DNA of 64,000 bases from Lama glama. Taxonomy: Eukaryota. Position 1 is the first letter of the stretch; every line of letters begins with the position of its first letter. Positions 8,761 through 53,300 of this stretch are shown here, piece by piece. Under the pieces are notes generated by a model. The model was not told the DNA's origin. It worked only from the letters and a program-made list of their open reading frames with translations, and did not search any database. The stretch is from assembly GCA_028534125.1 (NCBI GenBank), contig CM052816.1, positions 64,420,001 to 64,484,000 of the forward strand, given 5' to 3'. Made by a program: the position numbers and the translations under genes.

Positions 8761-11700
8761 CTCACATGGGGAATTACTGAACTACACAGCCAAAATGAAC
8801 AGCCAGAGACTCAGACATGAGAAGATAAGAAGACAGGAGGACACACAACTTCTTACATGTTTTCACTTGCCTACATTATTTCCAGTCCTTGTTGCAAACA
8901 AGGAAAACAAAAAATAAAACAAAAACTGCCCTAAGTAAGTGTAAGTAGAAAAGAAAAACATGAGAATATCAACCACCTCTCATCTATGTTGAAAACGATG
9001 AGGAGCACAGGATCCACTGAAGTCTGAGAAGGCAGACCCAGTGAAGCGGCTGCCTCTTTACTTTGTGGAGGGGAAAGTGAGGGAAGCTCTTCTTGGACAA
9101 CTCTTCTTAGACAAATGCCATCATCAGTCTTTGGGGTTTCCATCTTCCCTTAATTTTGAGAGCCTAAAGGGCAGAGTCTCCATACCTTGCTCAGCAAGAC
9201 CATCAAAAGATAATTTAAAAGGAGTGTATGTACCCAGCAGAAAGAAACAATATAAACAAAAGGTCTGATTTTAAAAAGTGCTACAATAGGAAAAAAAAAA
9301 AGAGATGGGCAGTACAACTCTGTTTTTAAAAGGGAGAGAGAGAGATATAGCATCATGTTAGCAGAGAGATGTGTGTTAAATGATCGGGTTTGATCAGTTT
9401 TAAGGTCCTTTTGAAAACCATTCAGATGGTTTCTGTAGCAAACACTAAACTTAGATCTTAAAGATAGAGGTTCTGGTGAGATGTTCTTTGGGAAATTAAC
9501 AGAAATTCCATTCTAGCAGATTTGGATTTTGAAGATAAAAATACCACTCGCTCTGTGAAGAGTGGGATACTTAAAGCAGGCATGTATAAATTAAGCTCAT
9601 CCTGTGCATATCTTTTCAAAGTGTTATTCTGTTCAGACCACATCAGTAATGTATAGCCAAGGAAACGGACTGAGTAATGAAAGAGATCTCTTGACTCCAG
9701 CACCCAGAGACTCTTGACCAATTATTAGAGAAGTAACTAGATAATACTTCTCAGAGTTAAATTTGATCAAAAAGATACATCACCAAGAACTGGAGCTAGA
9801 CACTACTACCTGTGGAACAGTTTTCAATTTAAATATATTAGCTATGTCTACATAGTAAGAGGAAATGGAACACTGAGATAATGATTGGGTAATTTGGGCT
9901 ATAAGTTTATATTTACAATGAAAACATACAGCAATTGTGACAAAATAGGTTGTTAAATTGAATCACCTAAGATAATTGCTTCAATTCCCTTATCCCACCT
10001 TTATTTTTTTTTTTAATAGATGTGTAGTCATAGCCTTTAGGAGAGATAAAGATATTGTGGGTACCTGGTGTTGGACTTACATGCCAAGGGACACACTCCA
10101 ACTGATAGTTCAAAAGTTATTCTAGGTGCAAAATTGTTGTCTGCTAGTCATATGCTCTTCTCACTCCAGTGCTAGGTGATGTTACCAGCATATGGCTCCC
10201 TAGGCAAGCTGTTTGCTATACTTGTTAGGTTCTATCTATATTTCCTTGGACCCGTGCAATGACGTCATCTGGATGATGAGAACAAAACACAGCATTCTCT
10301 TGAAAGGAACGTCTTTCCGCTCTCACAACACAGAGATATATTTAATGTACAATTAAATGTAAATAAATGCATCAGATTTAGCAAACCAAAGATATACTAA
10401 ATCAGGCCATTGCTGGCCTTCCATGCTTCACCTGAAATTGTAAAAAGGCGGCACAAGAGGTAGTTTGGGTCTTTAGAAAGAATCCCTTCCTTTCTAGAGC
10501 CAGTTATCCCCCTTGGTTTCTCAGCTTTTCTTCTAAATAGCAATGTTGATGCTTTATTAGTTAATCAATAAGACATGATACAGAGTATGGTTATCATAAA
10601 ATAATCATACCCTGGAGCATTTTGAGGCATGAGCCACTTGCCTCTAATCAGATTGGGTTGAGATTACCTCTGGATAACCACACTCTGGGGAACTGTCTCA
10701 TTTCTATTAAGAGTACATTTTATAATAGGGAAAATGTACATTCCTGTAAGGGGAAAACGAAGTTGGCAGCTTATACCTAGCAATCATTTCAGTTGAGCCA
10801 AGAAACACTCCTCGTTTTTGAACAAAGTCAAACTATGCTTCGTCTATTCAAGCAACGTCAGAGAAAAGAGGCAGCTCACATGCCGTGTGGGTAATGCGAT
10901 ACAATAGAGACTGTATTTTACTTTGGCATTGCAAGCTCCAAATTATACGCAAACATTCAAAAAGGGCATTTGAAACTTGGCATGCATGTTTATAAATGGC
11001 ACATTCTGAATCTGGAGTGGGTTTAGGTGTCTAGGTTACAATAACAGATGATCTCCAATGTAAAAATGGAACAAAGCCTTTCTTTAACTTCCTACAGAGA
11101 AAGATGTTCATTTCTGCTTCAATTATAATACCAGGCACACTGGAGATTCCGCTAAGAGCAATTTCTCTCTGTTTCTCCTTATCCTGACCAGCCAAAAATT
11201 TTAATCAAATTACATATATTGGAAAGTTAAAGACAGAAAAGCCCAGTGAGCCATGAAATACACTTTACAACAGCGTGCACAGCACTTACCCTACTGGTTT
11301 AGATGAATAGAAAAATCCATTTAAAATGTTAGATGAACACACAGCAGAGACGATTATAAATTCTTAGAGTTGTAGGTTTTAATCCCATTTTTTATGCATA
11401 GTTTTATATCCAGGAATTTTAAACATGGGATAAATGATAAAAAAAAAAGATGGTGAAAGAACTTACATGAATTGTTCTATGATGGGAGTAAATAATTGTA
11501 ACTAATAATGAAATTGAGATACAAGAAAGTTGGACAGGATTATTGCCATATTGATAGAATCAGATGATATTCTTTGTGTTTTTTAGCTATATGGGTGTCA
11601 AAACAGAAACAAAATTATTTCAGGTTGGTCTTTTGAATGGAAGGAGAGAAGGTGGACACAATCCTGGGACAACAGAAAGACAGTCTCATCTATGGGTTGT

Positions 11701-12707
11701 AACAGTAGAATTAAATTTAGCTTCTATAGGGCAACACTGCATTTGATTAAACATACCCCTTTTCAATGCTGGTTATTTCAAGAGCCTCAGAATACCTGTC
11801 TTGGGTCCAAAAAATTGCTTAATGCTTCCTACTATTTCATCAGAATTGTACTTGATTTCCACAAAACAGCTAGGGCAACTGGGCTCCTGGCTTGACAGAA
11901 ATGAGAACTGGCCAAAAAGAAACCACATAAGGATTTTCACTCATCATTAAAAATTCAACTCACAGAACCAGATGAAAGAGTCAATTTTTAATTATTCAGA
12001 GAGCAGAAAGGCTCCCTACCTCAGATTTCCCCAGGTTGGTAGATTTCTCATGTTTTCTACTAAAAGTCTCATTTTGTTTTGCCCAGAAGAGTCCAAAAAC
12101 AGCCTAAATGCTACCTCACACATCCCAGAATGAAAGTCAATTGAGGGCCCTGCAGACAGAGCTAGACTGAAAAAGGCCTGGGGACACTCCTTCTCCTCTA
12201 GAAGCAGTGACTCCTGGTCCAGTCCTGCCCCTGACTGCTGTGGGAGTTCTCAGAGGCCTGGACCTAACACTCCTCTTCCACCACTTGAACACCCCTGCCC
12301 ATTAATTTCCTACCACCTCGACTCCGACGTTACCACCGAACCACAACGGTTTTCTCTAAGGTCACTGCATAGTCAAATGAGTAGCTTCCCCAACGTTCTC
12401 CTTGAACGCTGCCACATTCTCTTCTACTAATCACCAGGCTCTTGAAACTCCTTCCTGCTTATGTGACAGTTCATTATGAGTTCCTCTCCTACGTTCTGCT
12501 CATCTTCCTCTATTTTGCTAGGTCCCTTTCCTTTCCTAGATAGTAAACATTTTCACAAAACCAAGAGTGTTTTTGTCCTTTTGCTTACCTCTCTGGGTAA
12601 TAAACCCTCTCTCATGGTATCAACTGTGTCAGACCCACAAGTCCCACTTTGACTTTTCACCTATCACTAGATTCTTGTCTCCTACTGACACTCAAATTTG
12701 AAAGGAT

Positions 12708-13263
12708 TGAGCTGCAGAATTTCAAGGTGACTCCCTTTGATTCCCATCCCTTGGTATCCATACATTTGCATCATACCCTCCCCTTCAGTGCAGGTAGAGC
12801 CTGTTACTTGAGTCTAGCCAACAGAATATGGCAAAGGTGAAAAGAGTGAGCAGATGTAACTAAGGTCCCTAATCAGTTGACTTTGAGTTCATCAAAATGG
12901 AAATTACACTACATGGACCTGACCTAAAAGAGGGTGCAGGCTCTCCTTGAAAGAAGAAATGTTAAGCAAGAGACACTCCCCTGTTGACTTGGAAGAAGCA
13001 AACAACCATGTAGTGAACTGTTTAGGGAGAGGACAGCCTATAATTGCAAGGAACTGAATTCTATCAATAGTCTGAATGTGCTTGGAAGAGGACTCAAGCT
13101 CCGTATGAAAACATCATCCCTGGCTGACACCTTGATTGCACCCTATAGGACCCTGAGCAGAGGACCTAGTTAAACTCTGCCCAGATGCTGACCCACAGAA
13201 ATTGTGTATTGTTTTAATCCACTAGTTAGTGGTAATTTGTTTTGCAGCAATAGAAAACTAAAT
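12708..13263 (+). mobile_element. MLT1E/F-like MaLR solo LTR
   Basis: aaggtccctaatcagttgactttgag ... tggtaatttgttttgcagcaatagaaaac. Confidence 0.8.
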
Positions 13264-14194
13264 TCTTACCTTCCTAACCTATTTATTATTGTCCTTTCAG
13301 GCTCAAATTTCTCAAGTCACCTGTGACTCTTTCCTTTCATCAGATACCAAGACTTGTCATTTATTCTTGACCAATATCTATTAAATTAAATTACATTTCT
13401 CTATTTTATTCAAACCTCTCATTTATTCAGCAAATGTTTACCAGACATTTTGTCCAGCTCTGGTTATGCAATAACTGAATTTATGCTGAATAAGATAGGT
13501 ATGGTTTCTGCTCTTATGCAAAGTAAAGTTTAGTGGATAAAATGAATACTGAACATATGATTGCAAGGTGCTTTGAGAGAGTTCTGCAGGGGACTCCAGC
13601 CTAGTCTGGTTGAGGGATGAGGCAGGAAAGGCCTTCCTACCTCAAGCCTGAATTACTGTGCCAGCCATCTACCGAGTCTCCCTACTTCTCATTCCCCCAG
13701 ACAGTACATTCAGAGTTACTGGATTTCCCTTTCTCAAAGATAGTTTAAACCTATTGGCCTCTGCTTGAGGACTTTCAGTGGCACTGTATTACCCCATAGA
13801 TATAATAAGCACCATGTTAATAAGGTTGCAGCAAACATCAATTGTCTCTTACCTAACAAAGGCCCAGAATGGTTTAAAGACTTGGCTGAAGCCACAGAAG
13901 TAGCAGAAATAGGATTGAATTCCCTGTGAGCTAACTCTGAATCAAATTCTTTTTTTCACGATTGCTACTTCTTTCATATTATAAAAAGAAAAAGATCTAA
14001 TCATGAGTATGGAACAAATATTATAGATAAATTAGGTATAGTCCCCAGAGGAAAAGCACATCACCCACTTATGGTCTACAAGCTTGAAGCCGATTGAAAA
14101 TCAACATTTGGTTAACACAGCTGGTCTCATAACCCATGACTATAAAATGAGGGTCACATTTACACTGATACCTAGATTACAATAAATCTGAAGC

Positions 14195-14642
14195 CCCCAC
14201 CTGCCAGAGGGGAATATAGCAGCAGTGTTGATGCTCCTGATCCTCTGTCCAGCCCCCTTTAACTGGTGTGCATTCACTACTATGTTTGGATTTTAACAAG
14301 GCACAGCTTCCCTTTCCTTCAAAGAACTGCCCTCAGAAGCTTCTTTATTGGGAAGGCTGTTCCAACCCCCAACACTTGGGCCAAACTTCAGCCAATGACT
14401 GGCCAATACTCTACAAAAGACCAGCCCCTCTTGACTCAAGGTGGGACCAGTTATGAGATGAAACCTACCCTCCAGAGCTTTTGTGTGAGTTCTGACTGAA
14501 GCTAACCTCCAGCTGAGACCTCATTCCTAGGTTGCTATCTTCGCCTCCTTACCATGTTTCTCTCATGCCCTTCTCCAGAGAATAGTCCTCAAATCAATCA
14601 CTTGAGTAAGAATTCTCACCTCAGACTCTGCTTTTAGGGAAC
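14195..14642 (+). mobile_element. LTR16-like ERVL solo LTR
   Basis: ccagcccctcttgactcaaggtgggac ... ctcagactctgcttttagggaac end motif. Confidence 0.65.
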
Positions 14643-17600
14643 TTATTCCCAAAGAATAAACTTATTCAAAGTGTCCCTAATTTGTTTCAGTGAGCCTCCA
14701 AAGGGGGCCTCATCAATGTCTACTGGCCACTCTGTCACGGCAGCTTCATGGGGCATCCACCACTTTCCCTCTCCCATGCATATGTCCTCACCACTGCCCA
14801 GGAATCTACTTGAATGAACCCCACTGTGATCTCTGCTGAAGGCTCTCATTCTGAGAACAACAATGTCCATAACAAGGATGCTAGCAGCTTTTGGATATTC
14901 CTTAAACTGCCAGTCCTCAAGATGCCATAACTGATCTGACTTCCCTGCTGTTGGCAGAATGGCCTCTACCTTCACGTTCTGGATACTGGATACTTTCTGG
15001 ATAAAAGTCCCACAACAGCTCTGCTTTTGCCCAAAGTTTTAGGAGGTCTGGTTTCTGACCTTTATTTCTCTAATCCTAAGGGATCAAACCCATTTCTAGT
15101 TGCAGAAGGCAAAGCTGACACCATCCCTTTAAAACCTTCTTGCAGTATATGTCCCCAACCAAACATATCCCTCTTGTTCCAGCTAAAAAAGCAAAGCCCT
15201 ATGATGTGCATGAGTGTGCTGGGAGAGAGTGTTGTCTATACTAGCATCTTCTGGCATCCAGTTCAAAAAACTTTTTTTTAATTTCATTTTTATTTTAAGC
15301 CTGTGTTATCACGGAAACCTCCTCCCTGAAACGATTTTGGCTAGAGAACTTCTGCAAAGAAGAACAGATACAACCTGTTAAGAAATTATTCTTTCATAAA
15401 AGTTATTAAAAGGTACTTAAACATACATAGAAGAAACTTTCAAGGTATAATTCTTTAAGCTGTTATCTACTTTAGTTTTACATAAGGAAATTCTAAAATG
15501 AAATTCAAGGTGTTTTCCATTTCTCTTTCATAGAGATTTAATATTTATTTTATTACAAACATTTTCAAGCATACAGCAAAGTTGAATTTTACAGTATACA
15601 TCTCTCTATACATCACCTAGATTCTACCACTATACTTGCTTCATCATGTATCTGTATATCTATCCATTCCTCTATTCATCCATCCATCAGACTATGGTGG
15701 CATTTTAATTATTTTTAAAGAATATTTTATACTTTGATTTAGAATCAGAAAGTCCATGTGAAAATAAATTCTACTGGAAATTCTATTATCTCTTCAACGA
15801 TAAAAATATTATAAGAAGACATACTTGACAGGGTGGCCTGGGAAAGAAAAATTATCTTTAAAAACACTAGTTCTGAGTAAATACTGTTTTCAAGCCATGG
15901 GTAAATCTGTCATAGAATAAATCTTATGGAAAGCTGAGCAGAATGCCAGGTACAGTTTTAAGTAATAATTCTCTAAAGCCCTGGTCTGTTCCATTGTCAA
16001 TGTGGGAAGCTATTTTTATTTAATCAGTAGTAAATGTGCCTATTCATTAACAATTGTATATAAAGTCAGAAACTGAACTCTACTTACAATGTTAATGCAC
16101 TAAATGGAACCATATATTTTAACACAATGATTTAAAAAGATTCAATCACTTCTCTAACATTTACATTTATATGATCTAATCACCCAAAAGTGTTAAATTA
16201 GGAGCAATATGTTCCATTCTGTGATGTCATTTTTGATAGGGGTCCAAGAAAAGAGACACAGAAGTTTGATTTAGCAGACATGCATTCTGTTTCACTCTTG
16301 TAAAAGTAAAATTTAATCATGTTGGTACACTCAAAATAGTTTTTTATTTCAAATAGAATAACCACAGTTGACTCAAAGAGAGAATTGGCTTATTTATTCT
16401 CTACCTAAAATTACTAATTCCTTGAGAGTGCTGTAAGAAGATGGAGTGGTGGTGAAAACCAAATACCTACATAAAAACAGAGCAAGTAGACAGCAAAACT
16501 CAAAATCCATGGACTACATTTACAACCAAACTTGGTGATAAACTATCTCTATGAATCCCGAGATATAAGTGGGGTTCAAACCACCAGCAACCACAAGATT
16601 TGCCTAGTATCAGGAGCTATGCAAGGGGAATCACAGAAAAGTTACAGAGTATCTGCCAGATATGAGAATAGGAAATCTCAAAATTGCCTATAGGAATTCA
16701 CTGAAAGCATAGCAGGCCAGTTAGAAGACAGCAGCTGAAACTGGCAAAACTTTACCTACTCCCATAGAGGGTGAATGCAAGGTACACAACAGCATCTAAT
16801 GGAGTTGTTAGAGTCTATGAACGTTTGAAAATGACCAGCCAGGGTTCCCTTCCAGGCCAGGACTCTGCACTGTAGAAAAATGGCTGATAGAAGAATATAG
16901 CTTGAGAAGAATGAGGACAATAAAGACCATACAAAGAGGTGGTCCAGATAAAAGCAGGAGAGGGAAACAAAACCACGAAATTTAAGGACACAATTCTTAA
17001 ATTTAATTCTTTATAAAAACAAGAGGGAGCTCTCTGAAATTAGGAAGGCTAAATGAACCAAGCCTCCTTCTAAAAGTTAAGGAAAACTCACATAAAAATA
17101 AGCAATATAAAATTACTGAAGTCAAATATCATACTAAGTTATTATTTTTAAAAACAAAATAAGGAACATAATAACATCCCTATAGTCAACAAGAGTATGC
17201 CAGAAAAACAGGCCCATAAAATAGATAAAGCTTAACCTACTATTTCAAAATGATCTAAAAGGCATTAAGAAGATGACATAACAGAATAACATAAGTCAAA
17301 ATCAGAAAAATGAGTTGAGAGAATTCAAGAAAGATTTAGAAATGAAGGAAAAATTTATTTTAGAAATGAAGGCTAAACTAGAAAGAGCATGTGAATGAAT
17401 AAATAGAATATAAAATGCCTTAAGAGAAATAGAAAGTGAAAGGGGATTTTTCTTTTTAAGTAAAAAGAAAGATATAAAAAGTATCTGAGAAAAAGTAACA
17501 AACAGAAAACAATCAAGGAAGATGCAATGGATAATAGAAGTTCTTGATGAATAAAAGCAGTAGAAAACAACAGAACAAATACTAAAAACTATAAATTAAG

Positions 17601-19053: not shown

Positions 19054-19121
19054 GTCAAAATTACCCACATCATTCAACAGATAAACTGTCAAAATTACCC
19101 ACATCATTCAACAGATAAACT
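19054..19121. repeat. Perfect 34-bp tandem duplication
   Basis: GTCAAAATTACCCACATCATTCAACAGATAAACT at 19054 and 19088. Confidence 0.95.
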
Positions 19122-19639
19122 GTGAGGAAACAAAAAGATGTATCAAATAATCAGGCAAGACTGAACTAAACTCAGAGTGTAAGGATGCATGCTTGGATGA
19201 TAACATCATAAAGAAACATAAGGAAGTAGGTGCTATAGTCAGGAGAGTGGTTACTTTTGGAGAGAGATATGAGGGCACGATACGGTTGGAGAAGCACATG
19301 GTGGGGCTCTTGGTCTATCTCTTGACCTGGGTAATGATCATGAGGGTATTAACCTTTTAATAACTCCCTAAATGATGAGATGAGAGGAAACAAGCAATTA
19401 GATGCACAGGTCTGGAGTTCTAGGGAGAAGTCAGGGTTGTATTTGGGAGTCAAATAGATGATATTTACATTCATTACTTGTTAGGATTGAATAAGGTCAC
19501 CTATGAAAGTGGTTGGCTTTTTAAAAGACTAGCAGCTCCAGGAAAGAGCCATGGGAATGTCAACATTTGGATGTGAAACAGAGAAAACAGAAAAGGGTGG
19601 GTAGTTACTTGAGAAGCATGTGACTCCTGTAAATCTCCT

Positions 19640-20145
19640 CAATCCCAAAGCTTACTCCTGTCTGCTGTCATGACAAGACCCACAAAGGCTTCAATGGCGT
19701 CACACGGGTGCAATCAGAGAGCGTCTGCCTCAGGTAGAAACCAGGTACCTCCCTGTTCCTGCCCTGGGGAGCTTCTCTGACCCATGGAGTGGGATCCTCA
19801 GGAAGCTACTTGACATTTCTGCATGAGCAGTGACTGGGACAATAACACTTGTGGGGCCCCAGTCCTGAGCTGTGGTGGACGAGATCTGACGGATACACAC
19901 TTCCTCTTTAATCCCCCAGGCTAATAGTTCAGAGGCATATCTTACAAGGCTCTTCAGGGCCTTATAAATCAGTGCCTTATGAATCAAGCACTGGTAGTAC
20001 CAGTCACCTATAGGCATGGCCTGCTTTATAACATAACCTTTCTCTTCTTTTCTGTGATCTCTCACCTTAGCTCCCTGGAATCTTTCCCCAAATAAACCAC
20101 CTACACACAAGTCTTTGTCTCAGGTTCTGCTTTGGAGAGAATCAG
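19640..20145 (+). mobile_element. LTR33-like ERVL solo LTR within an L2
   Basis: cccaaataaaccacctacacacaagtctttgtctcaggttctgctttgg end motif. Confidence 0.55.
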
Positions 20146-22789
20146 TATTTTAGGGAGAGAGGACTCAATTGTGTTGATGCTGCTGACAGGTTAAGGATCC
20201 ACAGAATGTGGCTAGATGGAATTCCTAGGTACCCTGACTAGAGCAGTTTCACTGGAGTGATCGGGCAGAAGCTCGATCAAGGTGGGAGGAAGCTCTCATG
20301 GGTCCAAATTCTGTGGACCCTTGTCCTCTCGGCAGCATTCAACACAATCCACTACTCTCTCATTTTTGAAATATATCACATTTGCCAGTGACTGGGGAGA
20401 AGAGAAAGGGTCAGTAGCTAGACTTACACGTAGGGTTAAAGAGAGGCTTTTTAAAGCCAGGAGACAGTAGACCACGGGGATGATGAGACTATCAAGCAGA
20501 GAGGGAAAAACTCATGCCAAAGAGAGAAAGGAATATTGAGAAATGGTGGAGGGGTAGAATCTTCAGCCCAGGTGTCAGGGTTGGCCTTTCATCCACAGAA
20601 GCAAAGAGAAGGCAGAACACAGACAGATATGGAGGAGGGTTGGTTTGATGGTTTAGATGGTGGGGAAATAAACGAATTCACTTCTGTTTCTATTTTCTCA
20701 ATGAATTACCATCATTTCAAAAGCTGAGGGAGAGCAGTAGTGGGTGTAGGAAGATTGAGAAAAGAAGAGGAGGGAAATAATTTTGGAAACAGAGAACACA
20801 AACATTAGCCAAGTGATTGCTGAGCTGAACTGAGTGTCCATTTTTTTTTATTTCATGGGAGAGATTGCTAACTCATTTCTATCCCATTTCTGGGAGAATG
20901 GGCTTTTTAAGGCCCAGGGTTATACCTGGGTACTGTTTATTTCTAAAAACTCTTTGTTTTCAGCTCCAAAATGATGGAGTTGGAAAAAAGGTTACAAGGA
21001 AGAAGAGCAAGACAGAGATCTAGCTTCTCAAATCAAAAGTAGGTGGTAGTGAAGACCAGTTGAAGAATGACCGCTCAGAGGAGCATGGTCCAAAAGGAGG
21101 GATATTTTAATTCAGGTCACAGAATTGGCTCAGTGTTGTTAAGGTCCATAAAAAAAATCCTGCTGCAAATTCACAGATGGTTTTTCAGAAATAGTATACT
21201 TCGGAAGATATATTTTTCTCCAAATAATGCATTAAACAGAATGATATTGTTTCCCCCTTTTTCCCCTTAGAAAAATTAAAGTTGTATGAATTTATTACAG
21301 AGGTGGAGGGGAAACTTATTAAATAACTGTAGGCTTCTCAAACCATGAGCCTAAGTAGAGAAGTTAATAAGTTCCACGCTGAGCAGTGACATCATTGTTT
21401 CCCTAGTTACCCAATGTGGAGGCAGAAATGAATAAGCTAGATATAAATGCAATATCTAATAGGGTGGGAGTGTTAGAACTTTTTATGGCCATGAGGTTGG
21501 CAAGCCTTATAACTCAAAATGTGGTCGCTCAAAACATGTAACCAAAAAATGTCTCAGGGCCTATCAATTCATTGCTTATGGCTTTGGCAAAATATGTTCT
21601 ATATCCATGTACCTGGATGGAAGCTAAACGTAGGTGGTTCACTGGCTATACCTAAAATCCTGGACTAGGGCTTTGTGGATATGTCAACACAAAAACATAC
21701 ACATATTTTGTATTTTACACAGAGCTAGTAGATAACAAGTAGGTAGTAAATATCACATGATTTTAAAATATGTATTGCTTATTTATATAATACACATGGT
21801 TCATTCCTTTCAGTTAAATGACACATACTCATGTAGACACCCTGAAAAGCTGAAACAATCCTATTCCTATTTTGATATGAAATTCAGCTTTACTTTTCCT
21901 GTGTGCTTATTTTAATAAGTAACAACCAAATAGTCTTTTTTTGTTTTTAATGTGATCGTCTTTCACAATCATCTTAACTACTTTTTGGAGCAATTCTAAT
22001 AGGTAAGCTAGAATGATCATTTCCATTTTAGAATTGCAAAACTAAAGTACAGATAGGATACATTTCTGTACAAATTCAGCTTTTACTGTTGTTATACATA
22101 TTTTTTTTTTCCAGATTGGATGTGAGATCAGTGACCAAAGAAGATGGCTTCTGAATGGTACCTCATCCTTATATTCTAGGATCTGGAGACTTGTATTTGA
22201 GTGCCAAGCTTGATATATAGAAACTAGAAGATTATACACACTGTCTATGGCTGACAGACACAATGTCAAAAATTCACCCTAGGAACTGCTAAACATGCCT
22301 GAACAAAATTTCATTTTCCATGAAAATTATAGAACATAATTTTTTTTGAAAATTTGTAGAAATCCTCATTTTCCAGTGTTTAACAATGTCACATTATTTG
22401 GACAATAATTTTTCTAGTCTTCAGTTTATCAAATAGCAAGTTTTCAATTATTTTTATGGAGCTTTTCCTTTCAAGCAGAATATCTTATTTTTATTTTCAT
22501 CTCATTCCCAAATAAAAGTGTAACCTCTTTTCAGAATTTTAGGGCTGTGCACTATAGCCATCAGGCTAACAAAAATCTTTACAGATGAATAGGATTTTCT
22601 TTTCTTTTTTCCTTTCTTCTTCTTTTTTTTTAATTTGCCATGTGTAAAATGGCAAAGAAATTGACTGAAAACAATTGGCTGAAATAACAGATCAACTGAC
22701 AGGTTAAGTTTAGGCAAAATATCTTCAGACACAAGTTTCCACTATTTTCTATTAATTGTTTCTTTTATTTTTAGTTAACTCCAATAACC

Positions 22790-39835: not shown

Positions 39836-41289
39836 GTATTTAATGATACTTGGCTTAAAAATTAACCCATCTTAACATTAGAAGTATGCACATCATTGGT
39901 TTCCTTGTAAAGCTGAACCAACCTGCTTTGACAGAGATGAACTAAAAGTAAACTGACAGGTGTATTTTCCAATAATAAATTTATATTTTTTGTTTTATTA
40001 TCTAACTATAGATGCATTCATTTAATGCTATTTTCATGAGATGATATTAAGGCAGGTCAATTTGCATAACTCCAGCCCTCACCTGGTCCTAGGAGTTATG
40101 TCAGTGTGTTTTCCAAAGATTAAAAGTGCTCCTCTTTCATTTTCCAAACATCCTCCCAGTCATATAAGTTCACAGAAAATAAGGCCACTTTAAGAATTTA
40201 ACGTAAATTTTGTTTTTAGTGAAGGCAGGTAACAGCAAATCTAAAGGTAGAATACCAAGCAAAACAGGCAAAATTAGCACAGACTTTATGCTGATTAAGA
40301 GTAATCAATTTTAAGTTCACCTCTCATTTTAGAGGGAAAAGCCAATGTACTGGACAACAATGAACACCGATTTTAATAACCAAAACGTAAGCCCTCCTCA
40401 AAGATCCTATCAATACAAAAGACTTTATTTGTCTTTGGACTACTTACCATTTAATGCCAAGATGGCAAGTTGAAATTGCTTAATATTTAGCAAGACTACA
40501 CAAAGTAATAAAAGCAAAAAGAAATCTGTGTTAAGGCACAAATGACTGCATCCTTGAACCTGATGATGACAGCACATTTACATGAAATCCTAGACTCTTA
40601 ATTTATACTCCAACTACAAAATACCATCTCCCAAAAATCAATTGGTTTTTGGTGCAGAGAGAAAGTGTTAGCCTTCCAGATGCCTTTAATAGCACCTTTT
40701 TCTTTGAATCATTTCCTATATATTTGTTCAAAAATATTAGTAGCTCATACAACCTGATGTGATTTTTTAAAAAAGATATGATCATAATACAAGGTTATAA
40801 AACATATAACTGAGAAACTGTTGGACAGAAATGACATATGAACAATTTATGTAGTTTGCTTTTAGAAAAAACAGCACCTTTGAGGGGAAATCTGCCCTTT
40901 CCCTTAGCTGAGGTGGCAATTCTTCATGACATGATTATACTAAGACCTGGAAGATAAACTCATGATCAGCTACTATTACCCAACATAAACAATTCTGTGT
41001 CAAGCAGTGTGAATTATGGCAGACATGAGGATTAAAGCTAGTGACCTGGACTGCTGAAGCCCTCTAACCACTCATTCTCTGAGCCATCCAGTGTCATGGC
41101 CTAGACATGCTTATTTGGGGCTTAAGTTTGCATTTATTAACCTTACTTAAAAGATGGCTTTTCAGTTGCCAAATTGAGAAGCTGGTTGCAAACAGATAGG
41201 TCATCTAAAAATCTAGGAAGTTTTTTTTTTGTCTCCCCCAAGTAGTATGAGTCAGCAATTCTAAAATTACCTTCCATGTAATCTAGCCT

Positions 41290-41910
41290 TGAGCAAATAA
41301 GTAAATATACTGAGGATAATGGTGGCCAGGTTTTTTTCTGTTGAGGGAGTTACAGATATGAAAAATGGAAGACTGCAAAGTAGCAATAGACTGGAATTGA
41401 AGGTTTCAGTATAAACTTGCAGTTTTTAACAGACATAGAGATAAATATATTTATATGTATGTCTGTCTGTTGAGAGGAATTACAAGCAAGGACACATCAG
41501 CAACAATGAGAAAATCTAGCACTCAGATCATGGTTCCTGAATAGCATTCTCCATGAAAGAAAGCAGATCTCCTTGAAGAAATGGTTGATTCCAGGGCCGG
41601 GGCAGGAAAAGTACAAGATGAGCTGGGAACATCTGGTTATACCAAAAAGTAAGAAAGGGCTCAAAGAATGATGAGGACATGATACATCTGGGGCTTCTGA
41701 CACACACAGGACACATTTTCGAACACTGGTCACATCTAGGACAATGAGAACACTGAAATAAATGATAATAATGGATTTTAATCTGTTAACTAAAAACTCA
41801 TAAATCCATCTATTATAAATAAATAAATGAGGGAGAGAGGAAAACACTTCCTTTTATTAGAATGTCAATAAATATAGATGGGATGATGGAGTTAGAAAAT
41901 CAGTCACTCA
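41290..41910 (+). mobile_element. L1MC/MD 3' fragment
   Basis: Same motif set as at 18.3-18.6 kb and 29.65-29.83 kb. Confidence 0.65.
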
Positions 41911-44088
41911 GATAAATAGGCACTGGGAGAAGGGTGAGGTTTAAGTGTCCCATGGCCAAGTGTTCAATCTCTACAGGGCCCAATGATAGGCCAAGAGCTG
42001 TTTCTTAATGGGTATATAGTTTTCTGCTGCAGGTGACATGGCTGTGCTCCAGAATCCCAGGGGCCTGTGTTCATTCTTCCACTAGACTTGTCATGAATTG
42101 ACACCACTAAGGTCTGCTGTATCACATGGTCCAAGTGTTAGTCAGGGCTTCTTGCACTGAAGCCTGGAATTGTGGCAGAGCCCTTTTCTGCTCTGGGTCC
42201 CATTCAAAGCTGGCAGCCTTCCATGTCACCTGGTACATGAGCCAGAGCATTATTCCTAGTTGTAGAATGTGTTGACTCCAGAAGCAAAAGTGTCCTACTT
42301 CTTTCTTTGCAGTAAAGGCTGCAAGAGACAGTAATTTGTCTTTCACTTTGGAGGGGCTATTCTGGCGCTTCCCTGGCTACTGGACCTCTAAAAACTTCAC
42401 TGAAGTGGCTGGACCCTGAATCTTCATAGTGTTTATCTCCCATCCTCTGGAGTGCATGTATCTTACCAAAGTCTTCAGCATACTGGTCACCTCTTGCTCA
42501 TCTGTCCATTCAGCAAGATGTTGTCAATAAAATGGACCAACGTAGTATACTGAGGGATATTTAAGTGGTCCATATTGCTTCACTTTATATTATGACTGAA
42601 GATGGAACAGGTAACATAGCTTTGAGGCAACACTCAGTCTCAATGAGTATTGTTGACTATTCTTTGTGAATGTGAACTGTTTCTGATCCTCTTTTCCAAC
42701 TGGAATGGAGAAAACACCCATATTGCCAAATCAATCACATACCATGTATCTGAGCCCTTATGAATCTGTTCTAGCAATGAGTCCAACATGGAACAGCTGC
42801 TGTGATCAGGGTCATTACTTGGTTAAGTCAGCAGTAGTCTATAGTCATTCTCTAGGATCCATCCAGTTTCTTTAAGGGCCAGACTGGTAAATTAAAGAAA
42901 CAGGACTGGGATTAGAACCCTGTATCCTTTTGGTCTTAAATGGTGGTACTATTCCTCAGCATTCCCCCAGGATATAATATTGTGCCTGATTTACTATCTG
43001 GGCCGGGGTGACAGGAAGTTTCAGAGGGTTCCATTTGGCAATCCCCATTGTGGTAACTCCTCTACCTCCAGACTGGCATCCATTGCAGTAGTTACTCCAA
43101 CTGTCACAAATAAAAATTCCAACTATGCACTTGGAGAAGGGAAAATGATCACTGGGTGGGCCCACTGTGAGACTAACTTTAGCCAGAACATCTGGTCTGG
43201 TAGGCTGCCATTCTAACAGGAAGGCCATGATGTTGCTTTAGATCTCCCAATATAAACATCAATGCCGATCCTGTCAATAGTCCTCAAAATACCTGTTTTT
43301 TCTTTCCCCAGGGTAGTCACTCAAATAGATGGCCAGAGTCCTTTTGGGGGAACTGCCATGTATTTCTTGCCATGGTGTGGTAGGGTTCTTTCTCCTAGAG
43401 ACCCATTCATATATTCAGTTCTGTATCTGAAAATTGTCTTAGGTCTGGGAACTAAGCAAGAGATCATGACTTTCATTACAGCGACTGCCCTCAGCCTCCT
43501 GTTCCTCTAGTCTGGCCTTTTATGGTAATAGATGTTAATGAGCAGCCTTGTGGACTGCCCATCTATCTTACCCCTAGGGATACATATTGTCTATTAGTTG
43601 TCTCCACAACTCCTCCTGGGTCAAGCTCCTTTGGCTGCAAGAATGACCTTGCCAGTTATTATGGTAATTGTGGCCTTCTAGCTTCTGGCAGTTAAGCACA
43701 ACCACCTGGCCTCTATTTCTTCAGGGCTCTATTATTCCCATGGATGTTAATAAGCCAGCTCAGTGGCTGCTTCTCTTACTTCTCCTTCCCTGGCCTGCAA
43801 ACTTCTTAGTGATGCTGATGCCTCTCTCACCACTGCTTTCCTGATGGCCTTGGATGAATGGTGTATCCTTTGGGCACTCTCATGAAGCATAATCTTCTGA
43901 TGGGTCTTCTCGTCTTATCTGATATATACACTCCAGCATGCCCACTTTGCTTGGCCTCTTTGTTCCTTCCTCCACAGTCTGCCAGTACAACTCAAGACAT
44001 TTTTCACTTTGCTGAAAACTGGCTGCTTTTCCTGCCCTCACTTCCTAAAAGCCATCCCATTAGCAAGTTTTCTCAGACCATTGGGGTC

Positions 44089-44424
44089 TGACTTAGTCAG
44101 TGTGGGCTGCCAAAACAGAAGACCACAGACTGAGTGGCTTAAACAACAAACTTTTATTTCTCACAGTTCTGAAGGCAAGGAAGTCCAAGATCGAAGTGTT
44201 GGCAGATTTGGTGTCTGGTTAGAGCTCACTTCCTGGTTCACAAACAGCTGTCTCTGCAGTGTGTCTTCACTGGAAGGGACAAGTCCACTCTGAGGCCTCT
44301 TTTATCATTCCATTCATGAGGGCTCAACTTTCATGACCTGTCTCCCAGAGGCTTCACCTCCAAATCACATTGGGAATTAGGTTTGAACATACAAATTTTG
44401 GGAAGGCACATTCAGTTTATAGCA
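44089..44424 (-). mobile_element. MLT1A/B-type MaLR solo LTR inserted in the ERVL gag
   Basis: TG...CA ends; 5-bp TSD GGGTC/GGATC (one mismatch); typical MLT1 motifs (ggcttaaacaacaaac, ttctcacagttctg). Confidence 0.85.
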
Positions 44425-44975
44425 GGATCCTTGCTAGGGTGTTAAATCCTCCATACCTGAGAAAGTGCCGCTTGCCAAGTCAACAAATTCTTATTCATCT
44501 AATCTAACTTTCTCACCCTTTGAACATCTTTAAATTTCAGTCCCAGGAGTCCTCTCCTGATTCTGGCCAGTACAGGCCAATTAAACTGTGCAATTTTTTG
44601 GGGGGGAGGGTTGTCTCTTTCCTTCCTTATCAGACCCAGCACGTCCCAGCTGGGCTATGCTAGGATTTACCAGTTACTGGATTTGTTATTGGTTAGATAT
44701 TGGCTTGGCAGCCAGGAAAGAAGGAGGTGGGCAGCGTAGGGAAGTAGGGCTAGTGCCTTGTGGGCAAGAGGCTTCTGTAGTATCTTTCAGCACAGCAAAC
44801 ATGCTAGCTCTCACTAAATAAAGATTACCTATCTGCCAGCCCTGATGGTCCAGAGGGAGTCTTAGGGGCATCCATCCAGATGACCCCATCCCATTGTTTA
44901 GGATCCTAGGTTTCCCCACTTTCACATTAACAGACCTGTCCTGGCTAAACATTCACTGCTCAAATGCCTCTGGAG

Positions 44976-45068
44976 CTAACTCTTCAGTCTGCAACTCAAC
45001 TGAGTGTTGTCTTCCACTATCACCTAACTCTTCAGTTTGCAATTCAACTGAGTGTTGTCCTTCCACTA
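44976..45068. repeat. Imperfect tandem duplication (period 48) in ERVL gag
   Basis: ctaactcttcagt(c/t)tgcaa(c/t)tcaactgagtgttgtc at 44976 and 45024. Confidence 0.9.
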
Positions 45069-45425
45069 CAGGTGATAAAGGCCTCTTTCAAGCTACCACA
45101 GAGGCTCTAAGGTCTCACACTTAGCTACTGCTTGTTAACAGCTGTTTCTTGTTTTCCTTCAGCAGTGCCCCAATACAACTTACAGTAATCAGCCAACTCT
45201 GTTGTCTTGGTAGGTATTACTCCTCCCATATTTTTCAAATACCTGTATAATCACACCTACAACAGTTCCCCTTCACTTGAATATTGTCTCAAGTCAACAC
45301 TGGTGAAACCTTAACAATTAACCTGCAACCTTATGCCAGGGGTGATGAGTGCCCCACCTACCCACCAGGGTGGCATCTTCAGGCCAGGTAATGGATGAGC
45401 CTGTTCTGAATCCCAATTTTATCAT

Positions 45426-45825
45426 CCCAGAAGCCAAGATGGAATTAAATGTGAAAGATTTTTATTAGAATATCTGAGAGAAAATGGGGAAGGAACTGGC
45501 AAGACTGTTGCACCAGGATGCAAGTCTGACCCCAAGTGAAAGAGAAGAGGAAGATTAGGTGGACGTGTCCTATACTGCAATGTAGTCTAAGGAAGGCTTG
45601 GCAAGACAAGGGGAGTCCTTGAACCCTCACTGGCCATCAGAGGAGTCTTCTGTCTTGCAGAAATAGGCTGTAGTATCTCTTCTATGCTCAGTTGCTGAGC
45701 TGTGGAAGAAGCGAAGTCTCAGCACAAACGCAGTGATGGATTTCAGAGCACAGCAGCTGAGGCCCTCGGTCAATTATGTTCCTTGCAGTGGGAGTCTGCA
45801 AGGTGCCTTCTCATAGCCACCTCAT
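45426..45825 (-). mobile_element. LTR16-like 5' LTR of the ERVL relic
   Basis: Resembles the LTR16 consensus as recalled; minus-strand AATAAA near the junction with the internal region. Confidence 0.65.
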
Positions 45826-48800
45826 CACCCTAGCAAGAGGCAGAGCTGGGATTTAAACCAGGAAGTTTGGTTCCAGTCTATACTGTCAACCACTGCATTA
45901 AGAAGGCATCTCTTAGAGCTGTAGAGGTCTGAAATAAATGGTCCTCTATCACATCAAAAACTTATACAGCAGGTTGGTCCAGATTTGTAAGAATCATTAA
46001 GCTCCTCTAGGAGTTTGTACTTAATTCTACAGACAGTAAAGCGGGGAGAGGGGCACATCACAGATTAATGTATGTGACTGTATTCCATATGCATTGCATA
46101 TACACTGGAATAATTTACAGACTTACGTGGAACTTTAGTTTCCTGTGTTATAAAAGGGTTTTGCAGTCTTGAAAACAGCTGCAACAATTCCTGGACTGCA
46201 TATACGGTAAGATAATCATTAAGTGCTGACAAAACATTCAAATCTTTTAGGATATAAAAACTTGAAAAAAAATGGACACAGACATTCATTTTCACTATTT
46301 ACAATCATCACTCTTTATAAATTCTTACTGTGGTACAAGGGATCAAAGATTCATTTAATTTTTACTATTCTATTACTAGTATTGAGAGTTATCTTCTACC
46401 ATTTTTATGCAGACGTACTCTTTCACTTATCCATGTGTCAAATAGCCATTTACAGGCTAAATGTGGAACTTAACCACTATTTATAACACAACTCCCTGGG
46501 AATCTGTATAGGCTCCCAACAATCAACTTACAAATGAATTCTATAGAATCCAACCTTTTATAAAAAAGAGGCTACATATTTATTCATTAACTAGTTGGTG
46601 TTGCAAAAAACAGATATTATTAATTCTATTTTATGGACTCAGGAACCCAGGCACAGGAATATTAAATGACTTCTTTGGTCCACATAATAAGATCAAATAT
46701 GAACCTAGAACTAGAGATTAAATCAGATTGTTATACACCGATATTAACAATACAAATCTACAATTGTCATATAGTCTTACAATAGACTATTCAAACCTAG
46801 AGATGAAAAGAATCTCAAGAGAACACTAGTGCAACTTTCTGTATGAAGGTAGGTATTATCATCTGCTTATTACAGAGAATGGAAAATTAGTTGATCAAGG
46901 TCAATTCTAAAAATGAAGGAAAACTCCAAATTTGAAGCCTCCAAAAACTTATCATATGCACCAGTATAATTTATTACACTTCCAGAGGAAATATGTGAAT
47001 CAGAATGGGGTTTCTGGATTTCAGACTGCTTCACTTCCTGACTTTAAGCTTAAAAACATAAACTGTGAACTCAGCAAAAGCAATTTATGAATTTGGGACT
47101 AGGATATGTCTCTAAGTGACGGTTTAGGGAACTATATTTATAGCCTGGCACCAGTAAATTTTTGTTCACTTTTAAAACTGGATTCCAAATATACACATTA
47201 TACTCTGAGGGCTATTAAAGGAAAGAACTAGTTTTTAGAATTAAACTTTGGGATGCAATTCCAAACAATGATTTCCTATGTTCCTTAGTTCTGAATGATA
47301 TGATTATAGTGCAAGATTTTAAAATAAACATAAAAATTAAAAGCAGTGGAAGAATTTTACTAGCAAATAACTACTTGTTACATGTCAGACATCTTTGTAA
47401 AAGTTCTGGATTTCAAATACTTGATCTACAGGCAAACTATACTGTGCCTTTTTCACTAGGGGCTCGAGGTATCTTACTACATGAACATATACAATAATGA
47501 GAGGTATAGAATATTTGTCCTAGGATAAATACATTTTTTAAAAAATGAAAGGATACAAGTCAGGATGAATGTTAGACATGAATTTCAAATTTGGCTCTTG
47601 AGCTTCCCGTCAAATCAAAGGTAAAATTCTTCCTATCAGAAAAGTGGCTTCCAAAACTTGTTTTAGAATTACATTGTAAAATATCTTACATGGGACTTTA
47701 TATAAAGGGCACTGTATGACACAGAGGACAACATACCTGACAATATCATATAGCAAAAACAGTTATGTCTGAGATGGTTACTTCCAGTAGCTTGCTTAGG
47801 TGAAGGTGGAAAGTATCAAATTCAAGTGCTACTCAGTGAAGGTGATGCTACTAGGGGCTGCTTTTGCAATACACATGGTTTCTACACCGAAGGATTCTTA
47901 CACATGAATCAATTTTCTCAGTAGGAGAGCAACCCTTTAAAGGCTAGGAGATGCAGCACAGAAATTAAAGGTGACTTTTCATGGCTGATATAATTACATC
48001 ATTTAGGGGTAAGCCTAATATTTAAACTTTGGGGTTCAGGAGGAAAGCCTAGTGTCTCTCATACTCTAACAGGACTGCAATCCAAGGCTTCAGAAGAATT
48101 TACTGGAAATTTTAACCTTCCAAAAGGTGCTCTCTAATTATAGGGAATTAGTTTGCTGCATGTGCATGTATGCACAGTACATTCTGGAGATACAGAATTG
48201 TAAATAATTTCAGTGTTAAAAACACTCTATTTTCAGTATTATGTGAAGATTTCTATAAACTTCCTAAAGCAGCAATCAAATCACCCATACTGACAGTGCT
48301 CAAACACACTGAAATGTTTCTGAAATGTGCAGAAAGGGCCATGGGCAGCAAGGAATAAACAAAGAAGCAACTGCTATCTAATATTTCTCTTGCAATCTGC
48401 ATTGGGAATCATAAAGTCGGGAAATATCTAGAGAAGGCATCTAGTCTGCATATACGTTCTTACCCCATTTTCAAAGATCTCTATTTAGATCTCTAGTCTA
48501 GCTTGTTCTTATCTTGAATCTTAGCACCTACAGTCTAGGACTAATCCTTTCATCTTATCAATGAAGATGATGAATCACTCTGTTCCTTGAACATACTTTT
48601 ACATACTTGGAAATCCTTAAGAAACTAGTCTTCTTCCATTAACAAGATAACCACAATTATTTTTATCTTTCCCCAAACATCTTATTTACTAACCTTTTAG
48701 ACCCATTCTTCCGAGGGCATCCCTTATTACTTCCAAAACATACTACAAGACTTTGGTACTTTAACATGAGCTTCACAAATTCCTGGGATTTATATTATTT

Positions 48801-51800
48801 CATGATTCATTCAAACACCAACAGTGGCAGTGTTTTATCTTGGAACCAGTTACTCAAAACAATATTCTAGGTACTGTGGTAACTGATTTCATATAGCTTA
48901 CATTCTCGTGGGAAAGAGTAAACAATAAACAGTAAACAAGATGTCAGACTTCAGTGCTGTGGGAAAAAAAAGTGACAGGGGTAGAAAGGGCTTCTGGGAG
49001 GAGGTATTACCTGATTTGAAACCTCTAGAAAGGCAGTGGCTTGCAAAGATGGAGAATAACGGTCCAAGGAATTTTTGGCTAAGGTAGGTTTCACTGGTTA
49101 TTCTGCTTATATATACGAATATACATATTGAGTTATATGATCTTTCACTGCTCCCTACTGAATCATCTTATTTTGAAGACAATTTCTCTTTTAAAAGCTT
49201 TTCAGTACCTCCTTAATTGGTATATCCCATACAGTTTAAGAAGCATGCCTTTGAAACAAGTATTTCATAATAATATTAGCTAATTATTTAGTTTAGGATG
49301 TGTGTCTGCCAAATTACATTTAACAATGGGTGAAAAATAACAATATTCCGAAAAAAAAAAAGGTCTTTGTGTTGCTGGATAGGCCCGAATGAATTTTCCA
49401 GATGCTTTCTTTGTAGGCAAAATAGGCTGAAAGCAAACCGGCAGAGTATGACCCATCCAGAAAATGAGGCAGAACGGAGGATGGAAGGTGGAGCGAATCA
49501 CTGATGGGTTGGTCTAACAGTAGTGAAAGTGTCCAAGAGAGAAGCAGAAACTGACAGGTCTTGTGTGTTGGATGAAGAAAACCTTTCATACCACATGAGC
49601 TCTGAGACATGCTGCCACCACCTGGGCAATAGGCAATTTTGAACTATGGGAAGATTTTAGTTGTGATTATTAGTTAATTAACAATTACAGAATAAAAAAT
49701 ATATTTTAATTTTATGAAATCAGCATTTTGGTCTAGTCTTTGGACATCAAAAAAAGAGCAGGGATTTTCTTGGCCAAATCTGTTTAGAATACTGCTCTAC
49801 TTCTTTAAAGTCTCTGGTTCCTTATCTGTAAAATGGGTAAAAGATTACCATCCTGCAGGGTCATTTAATCTCAGGATTAGTGATAATATATGTGAAGCAC
49901 TAGCCTAGTACCTGGTACATAGTAAGTACTCAATAAATATGTATTATTTAAATGTATTATTCTGTAGTATGATCTTCTAAATACCACTAAGACCTGACTT
50001 ACTTTTTTTTCACATAAATGTACCTATTAAGCAATGTATCTACATTGTTTTAATGGAAGGAAAAAAACTCACAAAACTTAGAGAAGAAATCAATTTCATC
50101 AAAATAAATTATATGTGATGTTACTGCAGGGAAATAAGCACAAAATGTTCAGCAGGTGAGAAAGCTCTCAAAATCTTTAGTTAAGTCTAGATTATTGTAA
50201 TATAATCTTATTCAGGTTTTATTCATTCATAATTTTGACATTGGTCAAGGTGAAAGGTAACTTTGTACCATCTAAAAGACTTTTTAAACCAACAAATGAA
50301 AGACTACGCCTTACCTTCTTAGGAGGAAAAAACAGAAATTTGTAAGGCTCCATTTTCAAAATATAATTGCAAAATAGTAACTAGTGTGGATGGTGATGTG
50401 ATATACTACAAAGGAATTATCCTTATGCAAAGACAAGCCTTCCTTAATTAACAGTGCAAGGTTTAGTTAATTTGGTTAAAGTTACATGGACAGTAAGATT
50501 GTATTTCTTAAAAATAAATACAAGCAGACCATATTTCCTTGTTAGTTTAAGTTGGTATTCTGAGAAACATTTGAGAGATAAAAGCCCAATTAAGGATCTT
50601 TCAAATAAAGAACAAGCCCTTAAGCAAACTGGCTATGTTTCCATTAAACTCCTTATTCTGCTGCTGCTTATGAAGTTAGAAAAATGGCCAAATCCAGTCC
50701 AATCAACAGAATTTTCAAGCTGAAAGAACCTCAGAGATAATCTAGTAGCTTTCTACATACAAGAGAGGAAACAGGCTCAGAGTGACTTATCAGAGTATCA
50801 GATCAGCAGAGACAGGGTCTGTAAATCTCAATTCACAAGCTAAGATTCCTCACTCTACAAAGTAGTCCACTGCATCTGAACCAATCTTGACACCACTTTT
50901 CATTAAGGCAATGCAGGTAGCAGTAGGAAGCTCTGCTGTGGTAATCCCCATGCTATTCCTGGGCTTGCAGCATGCCCCAGAACTGGAAGCTAGATCAGGA
51001 ATATTAGACTGCGAAGGCCTGGTTTACACTAGAGCCAAAGAGCTACAGATGCTTCCTTCTTATGTGCCTTTCCTTCCAGCCTAAGACTGCTATGCATTCC
51101 ACAAGGGATGCAGCAGAGCAAACTACTGGGGAGGCAGTGATTAGGAAAACTGTCTAACCATTATTAAAATAACACATACACATACTGGCCTCTGGAGTGA
51201 AGGATGTTAAAATAAATTCTGACTCTCTCTTGGAAATACTATTTGGGCAAATTTTTAAAAATCACCGAGTCACCACCAGCAAGTCAGGTTTTCAGTACAC
51301 ACAATCCAGTGACTGAGCCTACTTTTTCTGGCTACTACAGGTACAGGCTAGGTCCAAGCTGCACACGCTTTGAAACCATCATCCAAGTTTTCAAAGAAGA
51401 ATCAGTAAGAAAACAACCGCTGCTTATACAACATACAAACATTAACATATGCCCAACGAACTGTATTTTAGATCATTAGATTATTTTCCAAAAGCCTGTT
51501 CCCTGGTAAATAATAGTTACTGTTGTTATACATAAACTAGTTATACATGTCACAGCTTGTTCCTCAAAGAGAACATTCTATAGTCTTTCAAGAATAAAAA
51601 CCTGCTTTATTTGGCACACAACACTGAAGAGGTCTTGCAACATTTGAAGAGGTAGTCAAACAGAGCAATTCAGTGCAAGGGATCACAAAATTTGATCACC
51701 AACCAAACCTGAATTAATCTCTCAGTTCCTGTAGATTAGAAGATAATATTAACTCATTCTTTCTGCTTGTTGACTTTTGCATCCCTTTATTTGTGTATTG

Positions 51801-52099
51801 AAAGAACAAGTACCTCTGTGGGAACTCTGTGCCCAGAAAGCTTGATTATTTATCAAGTTTACTTTGGGCAAGTATCCATCATTCTCTTGTGAAATGAATG
51901 AGGTTATTAAATTAAGCAAACAGCAAAAACCCCTCTTCACACAGAGTGCATTTTCCCTTAGTAATAAGGTTCAGTGGATACACCAAGGTCCAACTGCTGC
52001 TTTGTCTCCTCGACGTGAGGATTTAACTACTGTCCAACCAGAAGATGTGAGGGGCAAAGGGTGGGGTGTGAACGAGAGGAACTCACTAGAATCCTTTAG

Positions 52100-53300
52100 G
52101 AGTCGCTATGTGACCCTCACCTTGACTCTGGGCGGTTTGTGGGGACCAACTCCTTTCTCGCTGCCGCTCTTTGGTTGGAGTTTCCGGGGGTCGCGCACCT
52201 CACCCACCGGGGCTCTCCACCAACGGCCGGGCTCCTGCAGGGGAGGGGCTGTTCCCCGGCTGACTTCGGGGGCAAAGGTAGGGGCTCTCAGCGCTTCCGG
52301 ACCGGCCCCGGGAGGCCGCAGCCCACCCGCGCCTCGGGCAGGAGGCCACCCCAGCAGGAGGTGCAGGACGCGGGCTCCGAGCCAGAGAGCAGCCGGGCGC
52401 CACCGTTCGCCCCGCGCGGCCTCACCTGCCGCTCCCCAGAAAGCCGCCGCCACCCCACCCTCCCCGCGTCCTCGAAGTCCGGCGTCCGGTACTACACAGC
52501 AATGGCGCAGCCGGAAACTGGCCCCCCGACTTCCTCAGGCCCGATCCAGGCGAAGGCCGGCCAGTGGGCGGGTCGGGAAAGCCGCGGCTTCCGCCTTCCT
52601 GCTTCCGGCCTGGCGGTGAGTTGGGAGTAGGGGTCCGAGTGCCCCGTCTCGGGCGCGACGTAGGGGAGGCTGGTGGCTGCCGCTTCAGTGGTTTTACCCC
52701 CGTACCCAGCGGAGGAGGTCACGGCGCCGGGGGCGCCAGGTGTGGCGGGGACGACCCCGGATTCCCGAGGACCGCCCGCTCTGCGAGCTGCAACGGGCCC
52801 GCGCTCGCCAAGGCCGACGAGGGTCGGGTGAGCGTGACCCCCGGGCCAGGCGGCAGGGTTGGGTGAGGAAGGAAGGTTGAGCGAAGGGGAAACGCGAGGA
52901 CGGGAAGTGCGGGTGGCGGTGAAGTGCTATCAGTTGCAACTTAAGGCGCCGCCTGGGTCTGGTCTGCAGTTCAAGCCCTGTCGACCCCTTTCAGAAGGAA
53001 GAAGCGTAGTATTTATTCTACGTGTGGGAGGCGCGTACGTTCGTGTCCGAAATTGAGGTGCGCGGCAAATGTGTCTTGTGGACGGTAACTCCTTTCTCTG
53101 TTGATGGGCAGAAACTTTGCCATAACCAGATCCTTCCGCTTTGCTCTTTTATTGCGGAGTTCTTTTGCTTATCTCTGAATCTTGCAATAGTTAATTCATT
53201 AATGGGTTGGAGAGGCTGAAGGAACAGATGGATATTTGTAGAGCCTAGTCGCGACGTGTGTGGGAGTGGCGTACGAACGGTGAGGGGGAGGCTAGGATAT
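52100..53300. promoter_or_regulatory. CpG island / TATA-less promoter of SMIM15, probably bidirectional
   Basis: Abrupt GC- and CpG-rich stretch in AT-rich surroundings. ETS-type CCGGAA (~52512) and CTTCCGG (52602-52608), GC box GGGCGG (52566-52571), YY1-like AATGGCG (52501-52507), ACTACA (52491-52496). Splice donors point outward on both strands. Confidence 0.92.
52570..52615 (+). other. SMIM15: SMIM15 non-coding exon 1 (start approximate)
   Basis: Consensus donor GCG|GTGAGT (GT at 52616) just downstream of the ETS/GC-box cluster. The TSS cannot be determined from sequence. Confidence 0.7.

Follow-up and report, generated by a model that had tools for sequence, protein, structure and literature searches.

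We analyze a window of 64,000 nucleotides of Lama glama DNA (CM052816.1, 64,420,001 to 64,484,000; all coordinates below are positions in this window) and focus on the 44 kb of minus strand that lead away from the promoter of the gene SMIM15. The most plausible reading of this stretch, which we hold with moderate confidence on the basis of its sequence features, is an ordinary long divergent spliced long non-coding RNA (lncRNA) unit that starts at the bidirectional promoter of SMIM15 and contains a mix of real and chance exons, and the unit is probably the positional counterpart of human SMIM15-AS1. A first-pass annotation of the window had proposed a hidden minus-strand exon chain that is either a lncRNA or the fossil of a lost protein-coding gene. 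The lncRNA half of that proposal is supported by the promoter island, the strong divergent first donor, the synteny with human and pig, and a strand skew whose limit lies close to where the chain stops, whereas the unitary-pseudogene half has gained no positive result.

The window consists of AT-rich, CpG-depleted mammalian DNA with a sole CpG island at 52–53.4 kb. Two strong first donors face away from each other within this island, one at 52425 on the minus strand and the other at 52616 on the plus strand, about 190 bp apart, and between them lie motifs that we take to be ETS/GABP-, YY1- and SP1-like. No minus-strand donor from 53.2 to 44 kb scores higher than the one at 52425 (8.3), and further strong minus-strand donors follow downstream at 52120, 50314 and 47736. 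The divergent unit stands head-to-head with SMIM15 and appears to issue from its CpG-island promoter, its start site being placed by the island and the donors:

52001 to 53400, no strand: CpG island, putative bidirectional promoter common to SMIM15 and the divergent unit (observed/expected CpG ratio 0.8, GC content 0.68)
52426 to 52520, minus strand: candidate first exon with approximate 5' end, ending in CAG/GTGAGG (slash, splice site)

An open frame of 241 codons crosses the island on the plus strand (51894–52619); it is GC-rich, has no match in the protein collection and is probably non-coding.

In the mechanism that we propose, the polymerase would pass the early strong 5' splice sites and continue for some 44 kb until it meets poly(A) signals near 8.3–8.7 kb; long transcription in the germline would account for the composition skew that the minus strand shows between 52 kb and about 8 kb. 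Some of the listed AG..GT segments would be exons and others chance pairs, with free turnover between mammals and nothing encoded, and the conserved blocks inside the unit would more likely belong, as regulatory DNA, to the SMIM15-ZSWIM6 regulatory block than be relics of a protein.

Strand skew of this type is a known mark of germline transcription. Skew was measured as (T-A)+(G-C) on the plus strand of repeat-masked sequence, for which masking was incomplete (self-comparison masked 16%, and further masks were set by hand). Between 9 and 52 kb it amounts to -0.055 (95% confidence interval (CI) -0.091 to -0.018), compared to -0.058 in NDUFAF2, -0.154 in ZSWIM6 and -0.012 (CI -0.031 to 0.006) in 91 kb of intergenic DNA (-82 to +9 kb). 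The best free change point between -82 and +52 kb falls at 4–8 kb (permutation p 0.052), a fixed split at 8 kb yields p 0.006 for the change, and the skew fades just past the last listed exon (9280–9186), next to a possible end of the unit:

8273 to 8678, minus strand: polyadenylation-type hexamers at 8678, 8319 and 8273, a possible 3' end shortly beyond the last segment; the mark is weak, as hexamers of this type are frequent

The first-pass annotation had cautioned that GTAAGT shows no obvious strand excess; in 9–52 kb there is nevertheless a mild excess of minus-strand donors, GTAAGT occurring 15 times on the minus strand vs 6 times on the plus strand. Donors scoring at least 4 number 45 on the minus strand of the same interval vs 29 on the plus strand (p 0.04). 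The same count has the same sign in ZSWIM6 (102 vs 71) but the opposite, wrong sign in NDUFAF2 (41 vs 63), so that the statistic is noisy and the strand excess of donors carries little weight. Seven runs on record as RNA share 0.37–0.49 of the words of 45.8–52.6 kb; these are unplaced word shares and are not used as evidence.

Several points weigh against an ordinary lncRNA unit of this length. The CI of the skew at 9–52 kb overlaps the intergenic interval, with masking only partial, and replication starting at the CpG island could also give the skew. AATAAA is not depleted on the minus strand of 9–52 kb (43 vs 45), unlike in ZSWIM6. Five exon-like pieces packed closely at the end of a 44-kb unit are more reminiscent of a coding gene than of a young lncRNA, and all of the protein searches described below are weak against an old relic. 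Finally, splicing and even full-length transcription are predictions from the DNA sequence.

Promoter-upstream divergent transcripts are a class found at bidirectional CpG-island promoters, and the present locus resembles them in its opposed first donors, which share one CpG island and lie about 190 bp from each other, and in its early poly(A) hexamers, AATAAA being present on the divergent side at 51791 and 51611, less than 1 kb from the promoter. One could envisage a short unstable promoter-upstream transcript near 52 kb only; the chain would then be made up of AG..GT pairs that arose by chance in regulatory DNA rich in AT and poor in repeats, and replication would be the source of the skew. 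Besides the two early hexamers, this explanation draws on the abundance of exon-like AG..GT pairs (0.1–0.5 per kb on any strand), on a donor strand ratio that swings between 0.39 and 2.11 across 43-kb windows, and on the weakness of several of the listed splice sites. It has to contend with the skew change point near the chain end, with the strong donors at 52425, 52120, 50314 and 47736, and with the lncRNAs annotated at the locus in human and pig; the strong early donors and the 44-kb skew suggest productive elongation rather than the early termination of promoter-upstream transcripts. We consider it improbable, about as likely as the lost gene discussed below.

Gene order also points to a divergent lncRNA. 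The window contains the following gene on the other side of the promoter:

54969 to 55193, plus strand: SMIM15 coding exon (Pfam PF15086, E 4.7e-35), which groups with named SMIM15 proteins

The last exon of a minus-strand gene near 62 kb is presumably NDUFAF2-like, and a first exon 84 kb before the window start is presumably ZSWIM6-like, both names being taken from the translations. With these names, the order NDUFAF2, SMIM15, gap, ZSWIM6 is that of human. The human SMIM15-ZSWIM6 gap holds only SMIM15-AS1 and LINC02057, both non-coding (PMC12659240), in agreement with the first-pass statement that a divergent lncRNA, SMIM15-AS1, occupies the equivalent position in human. The pig lncRNA LOC102161888 is syntenic, and the human and pig RNAs have no BLAST similarity to each other (PMC7350310). 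The unit described here is like both in that it adjoins SMIM15 on the opposite strand and runs towards ZSWIM6, a likeness of position. A koala gene list has nothing named between ZSWIM6 and SMIM15, with unnamed genes perhaps omitted (bioRxiv 2025.07.22.666211). In human, the locus is tabulated as a genomic regulatory block whose target is SMIM15 and whose bystander is ZSWIM6 (PMC6906185). Such a block can account for the repeat-poor blocks of the stretch without a lost gene.

The chain itself consists of the following candidate exons:

52121 to 52234, minus strand: candidate exon absent from the first-pass list, with strong acceptor and donor (scores 7.1 and 7.4)
50315 to 50405, minus strand: candidate exon with strong donor and weak acceptor; ATG in good Kozak context at about 50353
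47737 to 47943, minus strand: candidate exon with at least 4 stops in each frame
46127 to 46243, minus strand: candidate exon with one frame open and weak acceptor
40448 to 40495, minus strand: candidate exon of 48 nucleotides with AG/GT ends
38007 to 38203, minus strand: candidate exon with AG/GT ends
34169 to 34360, minus strand: candidate exon absent from the first-pass list, 52 codons open
22162 to 22250, minus strand: candidate exon with poor donor
9186 to 12149, minus strand: cluster of five exon-like segments (12149–12020, 11886–11757, 11663–11467, 10268–10081 and 9280–9186)

All seven individually listed first-pass segments have AG and GT ends on the minus strand together with the donors quoted for them, and their starts are correct except for 47944, which is off by one and should be 47943. 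The exon-like cluster claimed at 12.1–10.1 kb is present as the first four segments of the last entry. A peptide reported near 21.15 kb can be read as quoted but lacks a consensus donor downstream within the sequence examined. Splice sites were scored with weight matrices built from general splice-site frequencies; on this scale the acceptors at 50405 and 46243 rank lower than the 80th percentile of AGs overall, and the donor of the 22250 segment is weak. Searches of the animal's own genome covered the segments at 50405, 47943, 40495, 38203, 22250, 21158 and 12.1–9.2 kb, all of which are single-copy, with 46243 outside this search. The segment 46127–46243 has no relatives in Atlas, word-based or Pfam searches, and 34169–34360 has neither a paralog in its own genome nor an Atlas match. 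The AG..GT segments are likely a mix of real exons and chance pairs, the splicing of any given one being a prediction.

A lost gene would explain the chain differently. In this account, an unnamed multi-exon vertebrate gene, arranged head-to-head with SMIM15, died before the divergence of placental lineages and was missed by published lists of fossil lncRNAs; its promoter and some splice sites (the 3' exons at 12.1–9.2 kb) survive in what is now a SMIM15-AS1-type lncRNA. We regard such a unitary pseudogene as unlikely, and possibly the fossil reading applies mainly to the 12–9 kb cluster. The length of the chain is gene-like, the skew ends where the chain ends, and a non-coding first exon is followed by an exon with an ATG in Kozak context, all of which fit this account. 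The coding properties of the segments mostly do not. Thirteen segments were tested, i.e., those of the first-pass list and those added in our analysis. The first-pass claim that several segments are stop-free in one frame is correct for four of seven, but there is no excess over dinucleotide shuffles: for the 13 segments, Fisher p is 0.89 for stops and 0.24 for frame contrast. The frame test detects intact exons (SMIM15 p 0.003, NDUFAF2 p 0.01) and loses most of its power after decay; its ZSWIM6 positive control contained intron, so the power figures there are understated. The further claim that one C>T or G>A change would repair the stops in the broken segments is without force: each of the three stop codons lies a single C>T away from a sense codon (CAA, CAG or CGA).

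Composition is less weak than the frame tests after decay. The T content of the 13 segments relative to their flanks averages +0.012, compared to -0.004 in 130 pseudo-exons and -0.14 in two real coding exons nearby, a comparison that relies on these two reference exons and general knowledge. The T-poor step is present in segments 11886 and 10268, as a lost gene would have it, and is missing in 11 of 13. A relic decayed by about 0.2 should, we infer, retain part of this step, and therefore its lack counts against most of the segments being old coding exons. Neither open frames nor codon bias nor exon-like composition reveals a residual coding signature, and the chain holds no intact protein-coding frame: there are stops in the chained frames, no coding signal, and frameshifts relative to homologous DNA. 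An amino-acid composition score placed the minus-strand candidates below controls and was set aside as confounded by GC content. One minus-strand frame at 8931–9512, running through and beyond the 9280 segment, spans 194 codons interrupted by a single stop. Chance should produce roughly one span of this kind in 44 kb; the part of 70 amino acids of this frame is not in the protein collection.

An argument for a lost gene comes from the cluster at 12149–9186, where five exon-like segments lie within 3 kb of nearly repeat-free, nearly single-copy DNA. With strict thresholds, 1.33 Mb of strand sequence contains only 3 places with four strong AG..GT pairs inside 3.2 kb, the cluster being one of them, and 2 of 150 local Markov simulations reach its count. 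Exon-like pairs as such occur on any strand at the rate given above; a cluster of this kind is uncommon. On the other hand, the two other clusters of equal strength lack open frames that chain together, and the thresholds were fixed only once the cluster had been seen, which makes the counts suggestive only. A phase-consistent reading of the five segments meets 12 stops in about 246 codons, near chance, vs 14 and 20 in the other phases (hand count).

No protein could be assigned to the putative gene. One minus frame of 9187–12249, with X at stops, was compared by phmmer to a library of 1.84 billion representatives drawn from a protein collection that includes named fish, lizard and turtle proteins. 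Seven matches were returned, none of them a named protein: six unnamed short frames from Logan or ENA contigs and one repeat protein (P0006, 1229 amino acids), the latter rejected as a low-complexity match. The six frames are likely genomic DNA of other mammals, because they continue straight across the exon borders. Pfam gave a single chance match (E 0.19) for 14 peptides and 21 frames of 7 regions, PDB had no match to three frames of 9187–12249, word-based searches scored no homolog in any of three attempts, and none of 9 open frames from the window was found by exact look-up in the protein collection. The best ESM Atlas matches (0.77 and 0.80), bacterial hypothetical proteins, were dismissed as noise. 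Searches for retrocopies or paralogs in the animal's own genome returned self or chance-level matches only; the resulting lack of a functional paralog is not specific to fossil lncRNAs. Several exons collinearly similar to one protein were likewise not found, in a search with 0–28% power at realistic decay. This power was estimated for the phmmer design by simulation (25 replicates) at 0.22 substitutions per site, rising to 16–60% at 0.15. A reverse-transcriptase-like relic at 42–43.4 kb, which can be recognized by eye, escaped Pfam as well; the null searches are therefore weak. Other scans gave nothing that bears on the chain: a SMIM15-anchored metagenome scan produced one weak and unrelated-looking candidate (L022, residues 18–50 only, E 2e-5), Rfam had no match in window positions 1–37400, and a bacterial promoter scan, irrelevant here, was empty.

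Conservation does little to separate the two accounts. In ten homologous frames, compared at the protein level only, alignment is equal in exon and flank at two segments, which is expected both after neutral decay and for DNA that was never coding. These frames carry frameshifts at differing places, and frameshifts in all of them fit early loss; if a gene existed here, it would already have been dead in their lineages too. As judged from translations, the stretch with the 10081 donor is missing in P0001 and P0008, the 12149 acceptor cannot form in P0005 and P0011, and the 12020 donor is apparently kept in P0004, P0010 and P0011. The best-conserved piece seen is the following:

10510 to 10630, no strand: conserved block, likely a conserved non-coding element and possibly an enhancer; P0008 has the same residue at about 38 of 41 translated positions

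Nearby alignments reach roughly 45–70% identity, and the block begins upstream of the nearest candidate acceptor, 10611. It has TAAT-rich motifs and raised CpG (observed/expected 0.39 over 10300–11000) and is a candidate enhancer of the SMIM15-ZSWIM6 regulatory block.

Fossil lncRNAs have precedents, Xist being reportedly derived from Lnx3. Hezroni et al. 2017 trace up to 5% of conserved mammalian lncRNAs to lost coding genes, which puts the prior for a unitary pseudogene at about 5% at most (PMC5577775). Like the GLCP-derived lncRNAs of that study, the present unit is long and multi-exon-like, adjoins a conserved promoter and occupies a syntenic interval flanked by conserved genes; unlike them, it has no intact syntenic gene or protein match among our results. 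None of the 12 human chr5 lncRNA rows of table S4 (PMC5577775), among the matches listed (1–30 of 78 for 'chr5'), corresponds to this locus. The locus does not appear by name in supplements on fossil lncRNAs or PhyloCSF (PMC5577775, PMC10195156, PMC5644071, PMC6158594 and, minus two files, PMC6886504), where coordinate-keyed tables could hide it and the names looked for included a presumed Ensembl identifier and clone name; our literature search found no paper on a lost gene at the SMIM15-ZSWIM6 interval. Should the unit be an ordinary lncRNA, little is gained beyond a probable length of 44 kb and a set of candidate exons for the counterpart of SMIM15-AS1 in a further mammal. Were the fossil reading true, the locus would represent an ancient gene loss absent from published lists, and a human lncRNA next to a regulatory block associated with schizophrenia (PMC6906185) would have a coding origin.

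Repeats occupy several other parts of the window. The minus strand of 41800–45500 holds a decayed stretch resembling a long terminal repeat (LTR) retroelement, with reverse-transcriptase-like motifs visible by eye, many stops and frameshifts, and no Pfam match; we take it to be of ERV-L/MaLR type. GC-richer LTR-element-like stretches occur at 12400–15100 and 19400–20400, and 12851–13272 resembles 7764–8256. Fragments at 6731–7583, 28888–30275 and 24125–26997, in both orientations, are presumably LINE-1-like. At 56277–56776, an assembly gap of 500 N lies between identical copies of 94 nucleotides (56183–56276 and 56777–56870), likely an assembly overlap.

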